Of a stretch of 46,471 nucleotides of DNA, positions 9,677-43,289 are shown one piece after another. The translations under genes and the position numbers were made by a program. The notes beneath the pieces are model-generated. The model made no database searches. It saw only the letters and a list, made by a program, of their open reading frames with translations, and had not been told where the DNA came from. Positions within the stretch are counted from its first letter, which is position 1. Every line of letters begins with the position of its first letter. The DNA is from Promethearchaeota archaeon (GTDB lineage: Archaea > Asgardarchaeota > Lokiarchaeia > Sigyniarchaeales > SOKP01): NCBI GenBank assembly GCA_048937405.1, contig JBHLNF010000019.1, forward strand, positions 1 through 46,471, read 5' to 3'.

Positions 9677-11317
9677 ATGCAAGATAAGTTTTTATGTGAT
9701 ACATCGATAATCTTTAATGGACAAATCCTTAATTTAATAGAAGATGGAGAGTTGGGAGAAAAACCAGAAATTATCATATGCAATATCGTAATTGCTGAAG
9801 TTGAATATCGAACTAATGTTCAAAAAGAAATTGGTTTTTTTGGATTAAATGTATTGAAAGAACTGCGCAATCTTCATAATGAAAGAAAAATTGATTTATT
9901 GATCGTAGGAAGACGACCAACGAGAGAAGAAATAAAACTCGCTCAAGGCGGTGAGTTGGATGCATTAATTAGAGAGGAATCTCGCAAAAATAATGCGATT
10001 TTAATAACAGCAGATAGAATACAAGGAGACGTTGGAGTATTTGAGGGATTAGAAGTATTATTTGCTTGGGAAAAAAGAACAGTGAAAGAAGAGGAAATGC
10101 TTTCTCTTAAATTGTTTGAATATTTTGATGATGAAACAATGAGTGTTCATCTTAAGCGAAATAATCCTCCTTATGCTAAAAAAGGAGCTCCGGGAAATTG
10201 GAAATTACATAAAATTAGAGAAGACATAATTTCAAATGAATTGATAGAAGATATCGCAATGGAAATTGTTGAAGTTACAAGAGAAGATAAAAATTCTTTT
10301 ATTGAAATTGAAAAAGAGGGTGCTGTAGTTGCTCAAATGAGAGAGTTTCGAATCGTTATAACACGCCCTCCTTTCTCTAGTGACGTAGAAATCACTGCTG
10401 TTCGACCACTAGTTAGTTTAACTTTAGATGATTACTCTATTGATAAACGGTTAAGAAAAAGACTTGAAAAAGCGGAAGGAATATTAGTATCTGGTTCTCC
10501 AGGTGCAGGTAAATCAACATTTTCTGCCGCATTAGCTAATTTCTATTTAGAACACGATAAGGTTGTTAAAACACTTGAAAGTGTGAGAGACTTACAAGTT
10601 AGACCCGAAATCACTCAATATACAAAACTTGAGGGCAATATTGAAAATTCGGCTGATATTCTTTTGCTCGTAAGACCAGACTTCACCATTTTTGACGAAG
10701 TAAGAACAACAAGAGATTTCGAAGTTTATGCTGATTTTCGATTATCTGGTGTGGGAATGGTTGGTGTTGTGCATTCATCATCTGCTATTGATGCCATTCA
10801 AAGATTTATTGGACGAATTGAGCTTGGAATGCTCCCATCAATCATTGACACAATAATTTTTATTCAAGGTGGAGATATTTCGACCGTTTTAATATTAAGA
10901 ATGACTGTTAAGGTACCTCATGGTTTTAGAGATAAGGATTTAGCTAGACCTGTTGTAGAAGTTAGAGATTTTGAAAGTGATCGTTTAGAATTCGAGATTT
11001 ATAACTTTGGAAATGATGTTGTGGTGAATCCTATCAGTTCTAAATATCCTTCAAGGGGAAAAGGGGTACATTCTAGTGGAATGAAAAAGGAAAAAAAAAT
11101 TCATTTGGATATTGAGGTAAAAAAACAAAAAATCATAATTAAAGCTAATCCTAAATATGCAAGTCAAAATATTGAAATTTTTGCAGATAATGATCTGATT
11201 TTTACAGGATCATTAAGCCGTAATAGTGATATTTCTCTTTCATTATCAAATAAAGAAGCAAAAAAGTTATTAATGAAATTAAATGATAATAGAGAAATTT
11301 ATGCTAAAGTTAAATAA
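9677..11317 (+). CDS. PINA-type PIN domain / PilT-VirB11-like ATPase (MJ1533/COG1855 family)
   Basis: N-terminal PIN (CDTS, GGELDALIR, ITAD), Walker A GSPGAGKST, RPDFTIFDEVR, GVGMVGVVHS, AIQRFIGRIELG. Confidence 0.92.
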   Translation: MQDKFLCDTSIIFNGQILNLIEDGELGEKPEIIICNIVIAEVEYRTNVQKEIGFFGLNVLKELRNLHNERKIDLLIVGRRPTREEIKLAQGGELDALIREESRKNNAILITADRIQGDVGVFEGLEVLFAWEKRTVKEEEMLSLKLFEYFDDETMSVHLKRNNPPYAKKGAPGNWKLHKIREDIISNELIEDIAMEIVEVTREDKNSFIEIEKEGAVVAQMREFRIVITRPPFSSDVEITAVRPLVSLTLDDYSIDKRLRKRLEKAEGILVSGSPGAGKSTFSAALANFYLEHDKVVKTLESVRDLQVRPEITQYTKLEGNIENSADILLLVRPDFTIFDEVRTTRDFEVYADFRLSGVGMVGVVHSSSAIDAIQRFIGRIELGMLPSIIDTIIFIQGGDISTVLILRMTVKVPHGFRDKDLARPVVEVRDFESDRLEFEIYNFGNDVVVNPISSKYPSRGKGVHSSGMKKEKKIHLDIEVKKQKIIIKANPKYASQNIEIFADNDLIFTGSLSRNSDISLSLSNKEAKKLLMKLNDNREIYAKVK

Positions 11318-11335: not shown

Positions 11336-12088
11336 CTAACTCGTTAGAATTTTCTTTACTTTTTCCATAATTGGAGGTAGAACATCTTCAATTAAATTAT
11401 CAAATTTTATATCCGCTACATAATCATAAGGTGTGTCACCTTTATTCAAAATGATTAATTTTGCACCATTTTGTTTTGCAATCCCTGGCATATTTGCAGC
11501 AGGAGTAACTACTAAGGATGACCCTATTACAAAAAAAGTATCCGCTTTTTGAGATCGTTTTATAGATTCTTCAAGTTCATCATAAGGTAAGGGATCTCCG
11601 AAATTTACTATACTTGATATTAATCTTCCCCCACAATGAGGACATGAAGGTTGTCCCTCTTGAACTGGTAGTGTTCTATATCCTTTACCCCATTTTTCTT
11701 TATCCCAACCTGCCTCTTCGAATAACATCTTATTATTACATGACAAACACTTCATAAAGTATAAATTGCCGTGGAGTTCACTGAGCATATCAAAAGGGAT
11801 TCCAGATTTAGCATGAAGACCATCCACATTTTGCGATATTAAATAATTTAGCTTTCCCATTTCCATTAACTCCACAATTAGATAATGGTTAGGATTAGGT
11901 TTGACTTGATCCCAAGGAGGGCTTTTTGGAGGAGGAAGTCCTTTATCTCGTCTAGTCCAAACACCATCTGGACCCCTATAATCAGGTAATCCACTAGCTG
12001 TTGAACATCCAGCACCTGTAAAAACAACTAACCTTTCTGACTCAGCTATCCATTGAGCGGCTAAATCAATTTTTTCTTCAAAATCCAT
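11336..12088 (-). CDS. NAD-dependent protein deacylase, sirtuin (class IV, SIRT6/7-like)
   Basis: Motifs [29 protein letters not shown], ELHGN, CxxC...CxxC, [10 protein letters not shown]. I moved the start to the Met at 12088 (MDFEEK) because the upstream 24 codons are low-complexity. Confidence 0.92.
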   Translation of the reverse strand: [250 protein letters not shown]

Positions 12089-12410
12089 AAAAAACATTAA
12101 AAAAAAACAATTTAAAAAGATTTTTATAATATATTTTAAATCAGTTATTATCCGATCCACATATCAAAAATAATTATTTTTACTTTTTTGCCCCATTTTA
12201 TAAAATTTTCTTGATTTTGAATTATTTCTATTTTCCAAACGAGAAAAATCAAGTATTTTATAAAACTATTTTTAGACACTTAATCAAGAACTATCATTTA
12301 CCATTAAATCTATCACCCAATATTAAAACTTAAATAGGCATATAGTATAATTAGGTTAAATATAATTTTTTTGATATTCAATTTATTTAACAGAGGTTAA
12401 GGATTAGATT

Positions 12411-26248: not shown

Positions 26249-29200
26249 ATGAAAGCTAAAAATAATTTTAAAGCCAAAAGAAGAATTTTCGTTTTAGTCA
26301 TTTTAATTTTCGGATTATTCTTACCACTATTCTATGGATTTCAATCTAATAATCTTAAAGTTGATTTCTCTTCTGGATTAAATACAACACAAGCTAATGG
26401 TTCTAGTGAGGATTCAGTGATATGGAAATTAGGTAAAGGTTTACCCGGATCAGGTGCGACAATGAAGCCTAGGTTAATAAATTTAACTGAAAGTAGTGAA
26501 TCATTAATTATAGTTGGAACAGATGAAGGTCTGGCAGCTATTACATTAGACGGTTTTATCAACATGAGTTATAGAACATTTGGACCTGTGATTGATTTTG
26601 ATATTATTGAAGATATATCAGGTGATTCTAATGATGATATAATCCTTATTACTTATTACAATGAGCATCCAAACCTAATTGCAATAGCTTCTAATAATGG
26701 TACAGAATTATGGAAGTTTAAAGCTACTATAGAAGGAATTAGTCCTGAAACTTTTGAAACCCAAGAATTTATCACATATACATGGGATATTGAAGCAATC
26801 AATGATATAAACGATGATTCGATATCGGAAATTGTGATTTCTTCATGGTATAGAATATTTGTTGTAAGTGGAAAAACAGGTGAAAAAATTTGGATGAGAG
26901 ATGGAGATTTTACAAACGATGTTTGGAAATTAGCAATTCTTGAAGATATAAATAATAATGGATTCGAGACTATTATTGCAGGATCGGAAGAAGGAAAATT
27001 ATGTGCTTTTGATTCTAGAAGTGGAAGGAAACTCTGGACTTTTAAGGTTGATGAGTTGAAGCACCGTGTAAGAACTTTCGCAGGATATTCTACAGAGATC
27101 ATTCCAAATTCTATTGATGATATTAAGGTAATTGAGGATGTTGATAATGATGATATTGATGATATTCTTATTGCAGCTGATGACGGCTATCTCAGATTAA
27201 TTTCTGGAAATTCTGGAATTGAACTTAACAATATTATTTGTTATAATATAACTAAACCAAGCGAATCATCATCTGATTTTGAAGACTCTCCATATACTTC
27301 AAGAGAGAGATTATTTACTAAAAGTGGCATAAAAATTTATGAAATCCCTGATATTGATAATAATGGGAAAAGTGATTATATTTCAATTGCCACTGATCTT
27401 GATTATGGTTATATAGATTACTATGAGAAAAAAATTGTAGGAACAATTTTTCACATTAATCCAGAATTTGAATTTGAAAAATTCAATATTACTTATCATA
27501 TAAATTGGACATATCAAAGTTTTTATCAAGATTCTTATCCTGAAATAATTGAATTTAATTCTGGATCACAAGTTTATTTCTATCATTATGGTAGAGATCA
27601 GTATTATGACGGATCTACTAATCCTCGAATTATCAGATATGATATTAATGATTTAAATTCTGAAAATCCAATAATTGTCTATAATGACCCAGATCAACCA
27701 AGTTCTCTTTCTTATGATTCACCAACAGTATCTTATTTATTAAATGTAGGAGATGTGAATTCTGATGGAATCGACGATTTATTTGCTATTAGTGCTGATG
27801 GTCGTTATTTATGTATTGATACAGCAAATGACAATACACTCTGGGTAAGGACTCGGAAAGACTTCAAGTTAGAGATCACAGACATTGATGATTTAAATGA
27901 TGATGGATTTGATGATTTCTTAATCAAACAAATAAGTGATTTTAAGCCAGATTGGATTTATTCAGTTGATTCCGAGGGAGAGGAATCTGATACTGAGAAA
28001 CCAAAAATTATAAATGAATTATTTACGATGGATGGAAAAACTGGAAATATAATTTGGTCTTTCGAAACACCCTCTCCTCAGTATTATGAAGGATTAAGGG
28101 ATTTAAAGAACGTAGGTGATATTACTGATGATGGAATAGATGATTATGTAGGATGGATAATCCCATCAACTATACCATCTGATATTTCTGAAATTATAGA
28201 AGCTCTTATAGATGATGAAGTAATTGGACAAGATGATGTTGATAATGAAATTATTCATGAAGATATTTACAGGACATTATTATCTAAATATACTAAATTA
28301 CTCGCGATTAGTGGTTCCAATGGAACTATTTTTTGGAATAACGATTTAATAGATTTTCCCTATAAATTTCATCGCCAGTATAGCTATAATGGCACCTATG
28401 AAGATCCAACTTCAGGTGTTTCTACTGGTGAAGATTTTTATAATAGAGTAAATGGTGAATATCCTCAAGATTGGAGTGGAGGTGGAAGTTATGAGTACAT
28501 ATATTGGGATGGTGATTGGGACATTTCGACATTATTACATCCAATTGATATTGATATTAAAAATGGAACAGAGTCTGGCAATTTATTTGATGTAAGGGGT
28601 AACCAAGATAGTAATTATACAGTCACATCCTACAATTCATCTGCTTCTTCTAAATCATTGAAAATAGGTACGACACTTGATAGTTCCTCAATAGGAACTA
28701 TAGAAAGTCAGGATGGTTTATATTGGGATTTATACTCAATAATTTCTAATGAAGAACAGCGAATTAAAGCCGAATTATCATTTAATATGTCTCAACTAGT
28801 TGATAAAGAGTTGGATTATATAAAAGTTGATTATAATGGATTTATGCTTGATAATGATATTGAATGGATTGAAATTTCTATTTTTAACTTTTCTCTTAAT
28901 GAGTGGAAAAATATAAGTACAAACGAAATTAACATAACAGAATCACAATCATCGAGTTTCTCATGGACTTTAAATTATACAAAAGGATTAACTTCTGGTT
29001 TAGATAACTTAGTAAGAATTAAATTAGAAGCTAAAAATTCTTCCGCATTTAGTATAAGTGTTGATGAACTCGTGGTAAATTATATTTATACTTTTAAAAA
29101 TTACTCAATTTCTGCTGAGAATGTTGGGGACTCATGGAGAGCATTATTCGAATTAACTATATCCACAGATTTTTCTGATGATAAATTATTAGGAGTTATG

Positions 29201-31501
29201 GAGTATCAACTTTCTCAAATTGAAAGATTTTCTGCCTTTAAACTACAAAATAAAATAGCAATAAATATAACAACTTCTCTGTGGTTTAATTTTTCATATG
29301 AAATTTTTGATTATTCAACTGGTAAATGGGTTTTGTGTAATTGGAGTAAAGATACAGACATATGGAATAACCATACATATCATGATTTAAGAGGTCAATT
29401 TGGTGGTAACAGGGTTAATTATACATATTTTAATTTTGGAAATGAACCGTATAACTATAATGATGATTCTATGTGGCTTATTACACGTGGGACTACAGAT
29501 GCTGATCCATTCATAGAATTTGATTATGAAAATAAAACTACTCTATCAAATTTTATGGATTCAAATAAAAATATTCGAATAAGAGTAAACGTGACTAACA
29601 AAAAAGATCCTTTTAATTTAACAATAGATAATTTTGGTATTGGTGCATTTTATTGGGGTTTATTTGATAATAGTTATGATAGATTTTATCTATGGGATTA
29701 CTCTCAAACTTTTGACAATTTAAAATTCACTACTAATAACCTCTTAAATTTAGAAATTCAAGATTTTGAAGTAGTTAATGGTACGAATGACAAGTATCTA
29801 GATATTATTGCTATAATTGGCATTGAAGATGAATGGAGCACAAGGATTTGCCTTTTTGATATTAAAAATCAAGAAACCTATACAAAATGGAGTGTAAATA
29901 AATTATATATCCCATTTCAAAAAGTGCGTATATTGCCGATAAACAACAGTCTAAATAATTGGATTTTGAGCGGAATTTTTCAATATGGAAACAATTTTAA
30001 TTGTTCACATAGATTAATTAGTGAACCTTATTGGAAATCTCAAATAACACATTTTGAAAACTTCAATGCGTCTAAAGTTGTGATTAATTATATTTGGGAT
30101 GAAATTCCACAATTTCCAAGCGAAGGCCTTTTTAGTACCATTCCTTATGAATTTCCAGGGAAAACTTATGTGACGAAAGATGGAAAAGTAGGATTAATCT
30201 TAGGAATGTATGAGTTCAGCGAATCAGACATTGATTGGGGGCCAAGACTTACTGATATTCGAATAATTGATGTAAACAGCCGTAATATTACCAGTAAGAT
30301 CTCTACAACTGGGTTAGAATATTATGGAACACCTGATGCAGGTGAACTTGATTTCAATTTAGAAGGTGCAGGATTAGGATTATTAATTTCATATGAAGAT
30401 TTCAACGGTGATGATTTTCTTGATCATGTTGCTTTTTATAATCCACAAATATCGGAAGTAGGTTATATGTCTAGTATAGAACTAAGAATTTATAGTGGTA
30501 ATTCTAGTGATTCAGATCCTGTTGTTCTATATAGTAAATCGTTTGGAGATCTTAGTTTTAGTTCTGAATCTTTGAAAAAAGGAATGTTCCCATTCTCGCT
30601 AATTGATGACATTAACAATGATGATTTTCCAGATGCTATTATTGGAATCCAAACTAAGAGTTATGACTATGGGTATTATTTTGAAGAAAGTGGAACTCGC
30701 TTTACATTTGGTAATTGTAAGGGATCTCATATTGACTTCTATGATATTCATAATAGTTTTGAAAATGAGTTAAATGAATTAACAGAATATAAATGGGTAT
30801 TAGATTCTTCTAAATGTGTTTCCCGATGGGAATCACCAAGTTATGAATTTATATTTAATGCTGAAAAGATTGGAGATATTAATGGGGATAATTCTTCTGA
30901 GATTTCTGTTTATCGAAACTCTTATATTGAATCTGGGGGCCACTATTTAATCCGCCCACTAACAGAAATTTTAGATATTACAAATCAAAATATAGTATAC
31001 AGATTCAATATGTATATTGATTCAATTTATCCAATTGCCGATTTAAACGAAGATGGTAAGGAAGAACTTTTAATTTCAAGTGGAGAAATATTATATTGTA
31101 TAAATTCTAAATTTGGTGTTCAAATTTCAACTCCTAGAAATGAGCAAAGGATGGGATCTCATAATTTTGATATAAAATGGGACACAGACTCAAACTATGA
31201 TTATTTTGAAGTTTTTATAGATGGTGTCAGTCAAGGTCCTACTACAGCTAAAAAAGTTACTGTATCTCTTGGTTCTGGATGGAGACAAATTAGTATTATA
31301 ATGCACGATACAAGTGGTTTAATTTTAAGTGTAAAAACTATAAATGTGTTAGTTCCACCTAATGAGATTCATTTAATTTTAACGTTCGTATTTTTAGGTG
31401 TTATTGCTGGTTCATATATAGTCTACAGACGATATCGTAAAAAGAAAGCAGAATTGGTGCTAATTGATAAAAGAATCAAAAAAAGAGGTAATAAGAGATG
31501 A
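26249..31501 (+). CDS. giant membrane-anchored FG-GAP/PQQ-like beta-propeller surface protein with Ig-like domain
   Basis: Signal/anchor helix; about 12 Dx[DN]xDG-like Ca2+ loops (e.g. DISGDSNDD, DVNSDGIDD, DLNDDGFDD, DFNGDDFLD, DLNEDGKEE); GxxLW docking motifs; C-terminal Ig-like domain, TM helix and YRRYRKKK tail. Confidence 0.88.
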   Translation: MKAKNNFKAKRRIFVLVILIFGLFLPLFYGFQSNNLKVDFSSGLNTTQANGSSEDSVIWKLGKGLPGSGATMKPRLINLTESSESLIIVGTDEGLAAITLDGFINMSYRTFGPVIDFDIIEDISGDSNDDIILITYYNEHPNLIAIASNNGTELWKFKATIEGISPETFETQEFITYTWDIEAINDINDDSISEIVISSWYRIFVVSGKTGEKIWMRDGDFTNDVWKLAILEDINNNGFETIIAGSEEGKLCAFDSRSGRKLWTFKVDELKHRVRTFAGYSTEIIPNSIDDIKVIEDVDNDDIDDILIAADDGYLRLISGNSGIELNNIICYNITKPSESSSDFEDSPYTSRERLFTKSGIKIYEIPDIDNNGKSDYISIATDLDYGYIDYYEKKIVGTIFHINPEFEFEKFNITYHINWTYQSFYQDSYPEIIEFNSGSQVYFYHYGRDQYYDGSTNPRIIRYDINDLNSENPIIVYNDPDQPSSLSYDSPTVSYLLNVGDVNSDGIDDLFAISADGRYLCIDTANDNTLWVRTRKDFKLEITDIDDLNDDGFDDFLIKQISDFKPDWIYSVDSEGEESDTEKPKIINELFTMDGKTGNIIWSFETPSPQYYEGLRDLKNVGDITDDGIDDYVGWIIPSTIPSDISEIIEALIDDEVIGQDDVDNEIIHEDIYRTLLSKYTKLLAISGSNGTIFWNNDLIDFPYKFHRQYSYNGTYEDPTSGVSTGEDFYNRVNGEYPQDWSGGGSYEYIYWDGDWDISTLLHPIDIDIKNGTESGNLFDVRGNQDSNYTVTSYNSSASSKSLKIGTTLDSSSIGTIESQDGLYWDLYSIISNEEQRIKAELSFNMSQLVDKELDYIKVDYNGFMLDNDIEWIEISIFNFSLNEWKNISTNEINITESQSSSFSWTLNYTKGLTSGLDNLVRIKLEAKNSSAFSISVDELVVNYIYTFKNYSISAENVGDSWRALFELTISTDFSDDKLLGVMEYQLSQIERFSAFKLQNKIAINITTSLWFNFSYEIFDYSTGKWVLCNWSKDTDIWNNHTYHDLRGQFGGNRVNYTYFNFGNEPYNYNDDSMWLITRGTTDADPFIEFDYENKTTLSNFMDSNKNIRIRVNVTNKKDPFNLTIDNFGIGAFYWGLFDNSYDRFYLWDYSQTFDNLKFTTNNLLNLEIQDFEVVNGTNDKYLDIIAIIGIEDEWSTRICLFDIKNQETYTKWSVNKLYIPFQKVRILPINNSLNNWILSGIFQYGNNFNCSHRLISEPYWKSQITHFENFNASKVVINYIWDEIPQFPSEGLFSTIPYEFPGKTYVTKDGKVGLILGMYEFSESDIDWGPRLTDIRIIDVNSRNITSKISTTGLEYYGTPDAGELDFNLEGAGLGLLISYEDFNGDDFLDHVAFYNPQISEVGYMSSIELRIYSGNSSDSDPVVLYSKSFGDLSFSSESLKKGMFPFSLIDDINNDDFPDAIIGIQTKSYDYGYYFEESGTRFTFGNCKGSHIDFYDIHNSFENELNELTEYKWVLDSSKCVSRWESPSYEFIFNAEKIGDINGDNSSEISVYRNSYIESGGHYLIRPLTEILDITNQNIVYRFNMYIDSIYPIADLNEDGKEELLISSGEILYCINSKFGVQISTPRNEQRMGSHNFDIKWDTDSNYDYFEVFIDGVSQGPTTAKKVTVSLGSGWRQISIIMHDTSGLILSVKTINVLVPPNEIHLILTFVFLGVIAGSYIVYRRYRKKKAELVLIDKRIKKRGNKR

Positions 31502-41765: not shown

Positions 41766-43289
41766 TTATAGGATGTCACTTATATCTCTGTATAATAGGT
41801 TTACATTTACTTGAAACTGTTCGTGTGTTATAAATAACTGTTGGAATGAAGGCAGACTTCCTAAAATGGCAGCACCATTAAAAGTAGCATACTGAAGATT
41901 ATCAGGAATGAAATATTTTAGTACTTTATTCGCAGATCCCATAAATTCTGAAAATTCTTGAGCTGCTGATTTCTCAATTTTTGTTTCTGGTAATTTCGTA
42001 GCTTCTAATGCTGCGATTTTTTTCCCACAATATGGACAAAAAAGAGAATCTGTATCAGGTAATTCTTTTTTGCAATGTGGACATTTTTCTTTTTCTGATT
42101 GATTTTGTTTAATTGTACCTAAATTTCCAATCTTTATTTCAGGCAATATCAATACTCCACCACATGAAGGACATCGATCTTTTCCGTCAGAAAGATCAAC
42201 TAATGTACCACAATTAGGGCATGTATCATCTTTCTTTTTTGAAATTTCAAGAGTTTGAAGTTGAATTAATTCACTCTTAACTGCGGAAAGAGGGGATACT
42301 GGTTTGGGAATAGGACCTAATTGTGATAAAAGAGGATCTAATTCAGATTCAAAACGTTCTTGAAAACCACTATAAGAAAGATTTCCTCCCGCAAATACAA
42401 TATGAGAAAGCATTTCATGCCAATAATTATTATCAATTACTTTTAAACTCTCAATGACTGCTTGAGGTATATTCATTATATTTCCGTAACCTAACATACC
42501 AGGATTAAATAAGACTTCTGGAGCTTGATAGAGAATGTAAGTGGGAACATTTATTGATGATCCATCAGGCATAGGAACTTTGAACATCTCTCCCGCTTTA
42601 GGGGGAATATTTGGATCTAAAACAAAATAACAATTCTTTTCTTTGATATCTTGGATAATTTCATCGGCAGCACTAGAAGAAATGCTTGCTCCTTCTCTCA
42701 TTAAAAGACTTTTTAAATTTTGATTAACATCTATTCCTGCAATTGGTATTTTTTGTACTGCATGTTGAAGAATTTGCCCGTTAATTATTGGTACTACCCA
42801 TGTTAGACCATCTCCACTTTCAATAACTAATCCTGTGGTTAATCCAACACTGAATAAGGAAAGTAGTGGTGTTGGCAGCATTACCAAACTCCTAACTCGA
42901 TGAGTTTCAAAAAATACACGCGCTATAAACTCTTTTGTCTCTTTTTGCATAAAAGGAGGTTCACAATAGAATACAGGATACTGTGAAAGGTTATCAATTC
43001 TAAGTAATGTGTAAAAAATATGATTTAAAATCTCATAATAACTATCCCAATCCATAATTTCTCCACGACTTAATGGATGGTTTATTTTAAGTACACCGCG
43101 CATTCGGGATACGTCATTTCCTACATAGATACTTCTAGCACTTACATCAACCATTACAGATTTATACTTTTCTGTACCAGTTATGCAAGGAAACACAAAT
43201 CTAGGGCTTGGTTCACCGGCGAATCCAACTTTTACATATGCAGAGCCAATATCAATTATAATTGGCGTTCCAGGTAGAGGCAGTGCCAT
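41766..43289 (-). CDS. actin-related protein with double zinc-ribbon insertion
   Basis: Actin motifs IIIDIGSAYVKVGFAGEPSPRFVFP, DWD, EPP, FFET, TTGLVIESGDG, AGIDV, DIKEKNCY, MPDG, APEVLFNP, IVFAGG, GFQERF, QYATFNGAAILGSL. Insert contains CPNC/CPSC/CPHC/CPYC. Confidence 0.93.
   Translation of the reverse strand: MALPLPGTPIIIDIGSAYVKVGFAGEPSPRFVFPCITGTEKYKSVMVDVSARSIYVGNDVSRMRGVLKINHPLSRGEIMDWDSYYEILNHIFYTLLRIDNLSQYPVFYCEPPFMQKETKEFIARVFFETHRVRSLVMLPTPLLSLFSVGLTTGLVIESGDGLTWVVPIINGQILQHAVQKIPIAGIDVNQNLKSLLMREGASISSSAADEIIQDIKEKNCYFVLDPNIPPKAGEMFKVPMPDGSSINVPTYILYQAPEVLFNPGMLGYGNIMNIPQAVIESLKVIDNNYWHEMLSHIVFAGGNLSYSGFQERFESELDPLLSQLGPIPKPVSPLSAVKSELIQLQTLEISKKKDDTCPNCGTLVDLSDGKDRCPSCGGVLILPEIKIGNLGTIKQNQSEKEKCPHCKKELPDTDSLFCPYCGKKIAALEATKLPETKIEKSAAQEFSEFMGSANKVLKYFIPDNLQYATFNGAAILGSLPSFQQLFITHEQFQVNVNLLYRDISDIL

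Follow-up and report, generated by a model that had tools for sequence, protein, structure and literature searches.

The closest described relatives of the sirtuin reported here come from Asgard archaea. Lokiarchaeum ossiferum encodes three sirtuin paralogues, LoSIR2a-c (bioRxiv 10.64898/2026.07.02.735847). In that preprint (July 2026), LoSIR2b shows NAD-dependent deacetylase activity on Loki histone-tail peptides and is the most active of the paralogues on Loki histone tails. In a fluorogenic assay it deacetylates a generic substrate about as well as human SIRT1, and a DUF592-fused version, like other tested Asgard SIR2s, restores silencing in yeast sir2 mutants (bioRxiv 10.64898/2026.07.02.735847). 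Phylogenetic work by Grau-Bove et al. (2022; bioRxiv 10.1101/2021.11.30.470311) recovered SIRT7 as the well-supported sister of a clade made up of Heimdall and Loki sequences, and class IV-like bacterial sirtuins were already mentioned in a 2021 review. Sirtuins with histone tails as substrates belong to the core of eukaryotic chromatin regulation, and their origin bears on the evolution of chromatin in eukaryogenesis.

The DNA analyzed here (the window) is a stretch of 46,471 nucleotides from a Promethearchaeota archaeon, and the assembly from which it comes comprises 4.47 Mb in 29 contigs. The minus strand of the window carries the gene for a sirtuin, here called P0001, with the following features (numbered in the window, with residues counted in the protein).

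11336..12088, minus strand: sirtuin coding sequence (P0001; 250 aa plus stop), from the ORF translation, a Pfam SIR2 match and SIRT6 as the best PDB match
12121..12140, minus strand: AT-rich, TATA-like stretch, 24-43 nt 5' of the ATG at 12097, read from the sequence
12002..12016, minus strand: GAGCS NAD-binding (Rossmann) motif, residues 25-29, aligning to GAGIS in SIRT6
11954..11986, minus strand: 11-residue signature, residues 35-45, in gapless alignment with the corresponding 11 residues of SIRT6
11900..11953, minus strand: short Pro-rich link, residues 46-63, replacing the helical module, as seen in the motif spacing and in a structural model that has no helix bundle
11765..11836, minus strand: catalytic segment SQNVDGLH...SELHGN, residues 85-108 (N87, D89 and the catalytic H106), with invariant columns, aligning to SQNVDGLH...AELHGN in SIRT6
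11633..11749, minus strand: zinc-binding module, residues 114-152 (C114, C117, C149, C152), from the CxxC...CxxC pattern and weak Zn_ribbon matches

The sole longer version of this reading frame opens at a GTG at 12160 (11336..12160, minus strand). The lengths of homologues (250-256 aa) favor a start at the ATG at 12088 or at another in-frame ATG, at 12097. The TATA-like stretch may be a putative archaeal promoter, although such a stretch has low specificity in a window with a G+C content of 24-33%. P0001 matches Pfam SIR2 (PF02146) with 115 bits (cut-off 24, E 5e-33) and CobB-type NCBIfam models with ~200 bits, which is under their equivalog cut-offs. The PADLOC defense models gave no family at E<=0.01, and an identity as an anti-phage defense SIR2 was ruled out on this basis. 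No tRNA or Rfam features were found in the window. Elsewhere in the window are a 507-aa Asgard actin-family protein with unusual C-terminal zinc-ribbon domains (41766-43289, minus strand; Pfam Actin, E 3.6e-65) and a 1750-aa ORF (26249-31501, plus strand) whose only matches, weak ones to beta-propeller (PQQ_2/BamB-like) domains, lie close to the N-terminus.

When P0001 is compared with all PDB chains using phmmer, the best match is human SIRT6 (3pki_A, 163.8 bits, E 4.8e-47), and query residues 3-105 align to it as one ungapped stretch. The next matches are Sir2-Af2 (150 bits), Sir2Tm (131), Sir2-Af1 (128) and SIRT7 (115), and the lead of SIRT6 over Sir2-Af2 in sequence score is modest (~13 bits). 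The distance from the GAG motif to the QN motif is 60 residues in P0001 and in named SIRT6 proteins, as opposed to 76-86 in relatives that bear the helical module. An AlphaFold2 model built from a 10-sequence alignment (pLDDT 92.4, pTM 0.88) places just one short helix (43-48) in the link, with no helix bundle. In a Foldseek search of the PDB with this model, the top 25 chains were all human SIRT6 (TMq 0.82-0.86, with an rmsd of 2.4-2.8 A for the best chains), and the runners-up were Sir2-Af2 and Sir2Tm (TMq 0.67-0.74). The original prediction had described a SIRT6/7-type sirtuin in this window, with a short loop between GVWT and PxxxH instead of the helical module. The ORF and the quoted strings are there, the SIRT6 string that it had quoted matches that in the HMMER alignment to 3pki_A, SIRT6 is the best match by both sequence and fold, and the motif spacing and the model bear out the short loop.

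The catalytic, NAD-binding and zinc residues of P0001 (GAGxS, Q86, N87, D89, H106 and Cys4) are all intact. G25, A26, G27 and S29 occupy invariant columns (alignment A1), and D36 and R38 are likewise invariant across the homologue alignment. Both class IV motifs, PD[FY]RGPxGVWT and SQN[VC]DGLHxxSG...ELHGN, are present and align gaplessly to SIRT6, and the spacing from N to H in the catalytic segment (19) is that of SIRT6-type proteins. The second Cys pair of the zinc module is CPHC (CxxC, residues 149-152). The SIRT6-type zinc loop (C166-X10-C177) is absent from P0001 and, among the aligned rows, occurs in metazoan SIRT6 only. The module also has an insert (GWD..KWG.GYRT) that is conserved in the Asgard homologue P0122.

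Over two short fragments copied from the preprint supplement (i.e., not over the full length), P0001 is 71% (residues 17-92) and 57% (residues 155-229) identical to LoSIR2b, with one single-residue gap. It falls in the same tree clade (Asgard clade A, see below) as P0122, the motifs of which are, on inspection, those of LoSIR2b. The source assembly has three SIR2 genes, a set that mirrors LoSIR2a-c. P0001 is the only SIRT6-like one; the other two paralogues have the helical module and match Sir2-Af2 best (237 and 218 bits). Judged by sequence, P0001 is its genome's counterpart of LoSIR2b. It is an ordinary member of a published and partly characterized group of Asgard sirtuins, and the core of the case for an Asgard SIRT6/7-type enzyme is already in the literature and partly tested on LoSIR2b. 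Our reading is that P0001 is probably a compact, core-only, NAD+-dependent protein-lysine deacylase of a short-loop lineage that is sister to class IV, the counterpart of LoSIR2b, with histone tails among its likely substrates.

Homologues with 77-97% identity to P0001 are found in MAGs of Promethearchaeota, Loki, Hod and Heimdall archaea. At E<=1e-40, there is a match in 128 of 301 Asgard genomes sampled evenly across the phylum, in 59 of the 68 genomes of the family and in 19 of the 21 of the genus; among the genomes searched at this threshold, several large Asgard families had zero matches. The Asgard lineages with a short-loop sirtuin include Heimdall, Hod and Jord. A search of 1.84 billion cluster representatives with P0001 as the query returned 531 matches at E<=1e-30. 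Beyond the Asgard relatives, the top 150 were mostly long (>300 aa), and those with retrievable names are eukaryotic (e.g., SIRT6 of Branchiostoma and fish, and proteins from one lycophyte, one fungus, Willaertia, Gefionella, Mantamonas and Leptophrys).

The distribution across bacteria and archaea was determined by scans of one genome per prokaryotic species. Short-loop sirtuins from Archangium (Myxococcota) are 53-58% identical to P0001, those from Thermodesulfobacteriota and Chloroflexota/Dehalococcoidia are 46-55% identical, and those from Planctomycetota are mostly 40-45% identical. Archaea other than Asgard contributed single MAGs of Bathyarchaeia, Methanolliviera and Thermoplasmatota. 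The nearest neighbors of P0001 in the protein atlas are bacterial clusters, and bacterial homologues (45-58% identity) are more similar to it than are eukaryotic ones (~34-44%). The classical view of class IV sirtuins as eukaryote-specific, on which the original prediction had drawn, is outdated, given how widespread homologues at 45-58% identity are in bacteria. As these bacterial homologues occur in phyla for which histones are atypical, an ancestral role that was not specific to histones is suggested.

Some relatives depart from the common arrangement. One metagenomic protein (P0125, 273 aa) is 54% identical to P0001 and has an insert of ~23 residues in the link (GAG-to-QN spacing of 83). 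Although Sir2-Af2 is its best PDB match, the trees place it within the short-loop clade, and this indicates that the link region was gained or lost more than once. In four related Asgard genomes there are two adjacent copies of the short-loop sirtuin (G240:C190:72308-73951, G273:C29:28108-29706, G279:C323:18478-20075 and G207:C9:775447-777129), and in the G207 pair one copy has internal stops. A fused version of this Asgard sirtuin (P0121, 408 aa; loci L260 3001-4227 and L261 1805-3031) has an extra N-terminal region of ~160 residues with a weak, sub-threshold Profilin match (E 0.0022, 18.5 bits vs. a cut-off of 25). A model of this region built by AlphaFold2 from the single sequence is poor (pLDDT 45.7). 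On 5 contigs, all from separate assemblies, the fused ORF lies next to a further SIR2 gene and a 494-aa ORF without a recorded Pfam match.

The conserved residues, together with what is established about sirtuin chemistry, point to a conventional reaction. NAD+ would bind the Rossmann half (GAGCS, Q86, N87, D89), and the acyl-lysine would enter the cleft between this half and the Cys4 zinc module (C114, C117, C149, C152). H106 would serve as the general base, and the expected products are nicotinamide, 2'-O-acyl-ADP-ribose and the free lysine. P0001 most likely acts as a protein-lysine deacetylase, and its substrates would include histone tails. The histone part of this role is plausible because LoSIR2b (57-71% identical over two fragments) acts on such tails in vitro, and because the genome that encodes P0001 also encodes a tailed histone. 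There are six histone-fold genes in this genome, and one of them has a K-rich tail (81 aa, with seven K in the first 14 residues; G000:C28:539988-540164; locus L245 1492-1737, minus strand). The product of this gene is a candidate substrate of P0001, and Alba and other proteins are possibly substrates as well. It should be noted that the histone link comes from the homologue LoSIR2b, as described in a preprint using peptide and heterologous assays.

The genes around P0001 are on opposite strands or are separated from it by intergenic gaps, and no chromatin genes were found in the neighborhood. The gene at 9677-11317 (plus strand) runs toward the sirtuin gene, and the two gene ends are 18 bp apart. 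Its 546-aa product has a PIN domain at the N-terminus and a PilT/T2SSE-like ATPase domain in the center. The convergent pair recurs in 61 of 80 related loci. A PHP-domain gene is nearby in 53 of the 80 loci and a 631-aa multi-pass membrane ORF in 37. Neighbors without a chromatin link are what would be expected if P0001 were a general-purpose deacylase, involved in CobB-like regulation of metabolic enzymes or Alba and without a special chromatin function, in which case the resemblance to SIRT6 would reflect shared ancestry of the core. This explanation would also accommodate the close homologues in many bacteria, the bare catalytic core without targeting extensions, the three Alba genes in the genome and the high scores against CobB-type models, although these are below the cut-offs. 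However, it was LoSIR2b, rather than another paralogue, that proved most active on Loki histone tails (bioRxiv 10.64898/2026.07.02.735847), the two other, Af2-type sirtuins of the genome could take on general roles, and a tailed histone is present. Overall, we regard a purely general-purpose enzyme as possible but rather unlikely, and prefer a LoSIR2b-like deacylase that has histone tails among its substrates.

The placement of this deacylase relative to the eukaryotic enzymes was evaluated using four trees: a FastTree phylogeny of 285 rows; an IQ-TREE mixture-model tree (LG+C20+F+G4, PMSF, quick search) of 117 rows; an IQ-TREE LG+F+G4 tree of 66 rows and 245 columns with SH-aLRT and UFBoot support; and an LG+F+G4 tree of 73 rows that includes four named vertebrate SIRT7 sequences (the SIRT7 sampling being amniotes only). 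A short-loop clade consisting of P0001, SIRT6, SIRT7 and their relatives is supported at 98-99 SH-aLRT / 100 UFBoot. The Af2-like sirtuins with a helical module, the two other paralogues of the genome and E. coli CobB (where included) fall outside of it. With this clade and a spacing of 60 rather than 76-86, P0001 is not within class U or class III. SIRT6, SIRT7 and all other eukaryotic sequences are united in one clade with 100/100 support that excludes P0001. Thus, P0001 can be firmly assigned to a broadly defined class IV, and is not within the span of SIRT6 and SIRT7.

Within the short-loop clade, P0001 belongs to Asgard clade A (Loki/Hel-type, with P0122). Clade A groups weakly with sequences of Thermodesulfobacteriota, Chloroflexota and Myxococcota (support of 83, 79.7/75 and 94.9/76), and a Thermodesulfobacteriota sequence (L188) and P0130 are nested inside it. 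Separate from clade A is another Asgard clade (B; Heimdall, Hod, Jord, Thor and Hermod; support 94-99). Under LG+F+G4, the eukaryotes branch as sister to a single group of all prokaryotic short-loop sirtuins (51.5/84 and 73.8/89), and in the mixture-model tree this level is an unresolved polytomy. These results weakly favor a prokaryotic short-loop group, made up of the two Asgard clades and several bacterial phyla, as the sister to all eukaryotic SIRT6/7. One outcome that had been named as contrary to an Asgard precursor, nesting in a widespread bacterial clade that is not sister to SIRT6/7, is therefore found in part: P0001 does group with widespread bacterial sequences, but the group as a whole is the sister of SIRT6/7. 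The specific pairing of Asgard sequences with SIRT7 (as in bioRxiv 10.1101/2021.11.30.470311) was not reproduced in our trees, in which vertebrate SIRT7 (amniote sequences only) is inside the eukaryote clade.

Alternative topologies were compared by AU tests, with IQ-TREE constraint runs on the 66 rows and four rogue rows left free. The p value was 0.77 for the free tree, 0.36 for clade A with eukaryotes, 0.37 for clade B with eukaryotes, 0.32 for A, B and eukaryotes together and 0.33 for A with B, so no topology was rejected. Strict constraints that barred L188 and P0130 from clade A carried large likelihood penalties, and the one of these that was entered into the AU test, clade A with eukaryotes, was rejected (p 0.015). 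We judged this rejection to be a constraint artifact.

These tests bear on the original suggestion of an Asgard precursor of SIRT6/7. In its strongest form, P0001 would be, or closely represent, the direct archaeal precursor, vertically inherited from an Asgard ancestor, with the bacterial copies explained by transfers out of this lineage. The shared architecture and joint clade (98-99/100), the wide occurrence of the gene across Asgard lineages (Heimdall, Hod and Jord among them) and the AU values for A, B or both with eukaryotes (0.36, 0.37 and 0.32) are consistent with such a history, as is the Asgard sister clade of SIRT7 reported by Grau-Bove et al. (bioRxiv 10.1101/2021.11.30.470311). 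However, the best trees have no pairing of Asgard with eukaryotic sequences: eukaryotes are placed as sister to all of the prokaryotic proteins (51.5/84 and 73.8/89), and their 100/100 clade holds vertebrate SIRT7 and leaves P0001 out. In addition, clade A groups with Thermodesulfobacteriota and Chloroflexota and has bacterial sequences nested inside it, and the bacterial homologues are closer to P0001 in identity than the eukaryotic ones. Asgard-eukaryote groupings are compatible with the alignment (AU p 0.32-0.37, vs. 0.77 for the free tree), without being favored by the best trees. We consider it doubtful that P0001 stands at or near the direct precursor, and the broader proposal, that an Asgard short-loop sirtuin of clade A or of the Heimdall/Hod clade B was the direct source of the whole SIRT6/SIRT7 lineage, with bacterial copies as secondary transfers, is likewise possible but doubtful. 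If the donor was an Asgard archaeon, eukaryotes would have inherited chromatin-bound class IV sirtuins from archaea, already paired with tailed histones.

In a further alternative, the main activity of P0001 would be, as in SIRT6, that of a long-chain defatty-acylase or mono-ADP-ribosyltransferase and not that of a deacetylase. This could draw on SIRT6 as the best structural and sequence match, on the structure of the next-best match, Sir2-Af2, with a myristoylated peptide (4twj), and on the name "mono-ADP-ribosyltransferase sirtuin 6" that JGI gives to some orthologues, but this name is an automatic orthology label and not a test, and LoSIR2b is roughly on a par with human SIRT1 in deacetylating peptides (bioRxiv 10.64898/2026.07.02.735847). 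We consider this alternative improbable.

P0001, a LoSIR2b-like deacylase in our preferred reading, is one more member of an Asgard group that was already linked to SIRT6/7 and to deacetylation of histone tails. What the present analysis adds is that enzymes with the SIRT6-like architecture are common in several phyla of bacteria, that they occur in two separate Asgard clades, and that ~245 alignable columns are too few to pick out the prokaryotic sister of the eukaryotic enzymes. Because these columns fail to single out a sister group, claims of an Asgard origin for SIRT6/7 need care.

Compared with known sirtuins, P0001 most resembles human SIRT6 (PDB 3pki, 3k35) in architecture: SIRT6 likewise has no helical module, and has the same motif spacing and the equivalent catalytic His, Asn and Asp. 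However, the two are just 34-36% identical. P0001 covers SIRT6 residues 30-269, and thus has neither the N-terminal extension (the alignment begins at SIRT6 residue 30) nor the C-terminal extension of ~85 residues; where SIRT6 has the C166-X10-C177 loop, P0001 has CxxC and its own insert between the Cys pairs. Without the SIRT6/7 extensions and the CX10C zinc loop, SIRT6-style nucleosome binding by P0001 is not expected. Vertebrate SIRT7 (PDB 9gmk) shares with P0001 the short-loop lineage and a CxxC second zinc pair (HKC motif), but it is a far weaker match (115 bits; 33-35% identity) and has long basic N- and C-terminal extensions, judging from its length (400-406 aa) and the start of the alignment at chain residue 93. 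Sir2-Af2 and Sir2Tm, which we take to be class U (following the usage of UniProt and Frye 2000), are prokaryotic and core-only like P0001, provide the second-best PDB match and form the nearest outgroup in trees, but carry the helical module (GAG-to-QN spacing 76-86), whereas P0001 (60) does not. Bacterial short-loop sirtuins (e.g., from Archangium gephyra and Archangium minus, Desulfobacterales, Dehalococcoidia and Pirellulales) have the same link, motifs and size (230-265 aa) as P0001, although many are ~15 residues shorter. The closest of the characterized enzymes is LoSIR2b (GNAMCCOK_01652 of Candidatus Lokiarchaeum ossiferum B35), from an Asgard lineage other than that of the P0001 host. 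It is core-only and short-loop, and it shares with P0001 a 19-residue stretch, ISQNVDGLH...ELHGN and the CxxC...CxxC zinc module.
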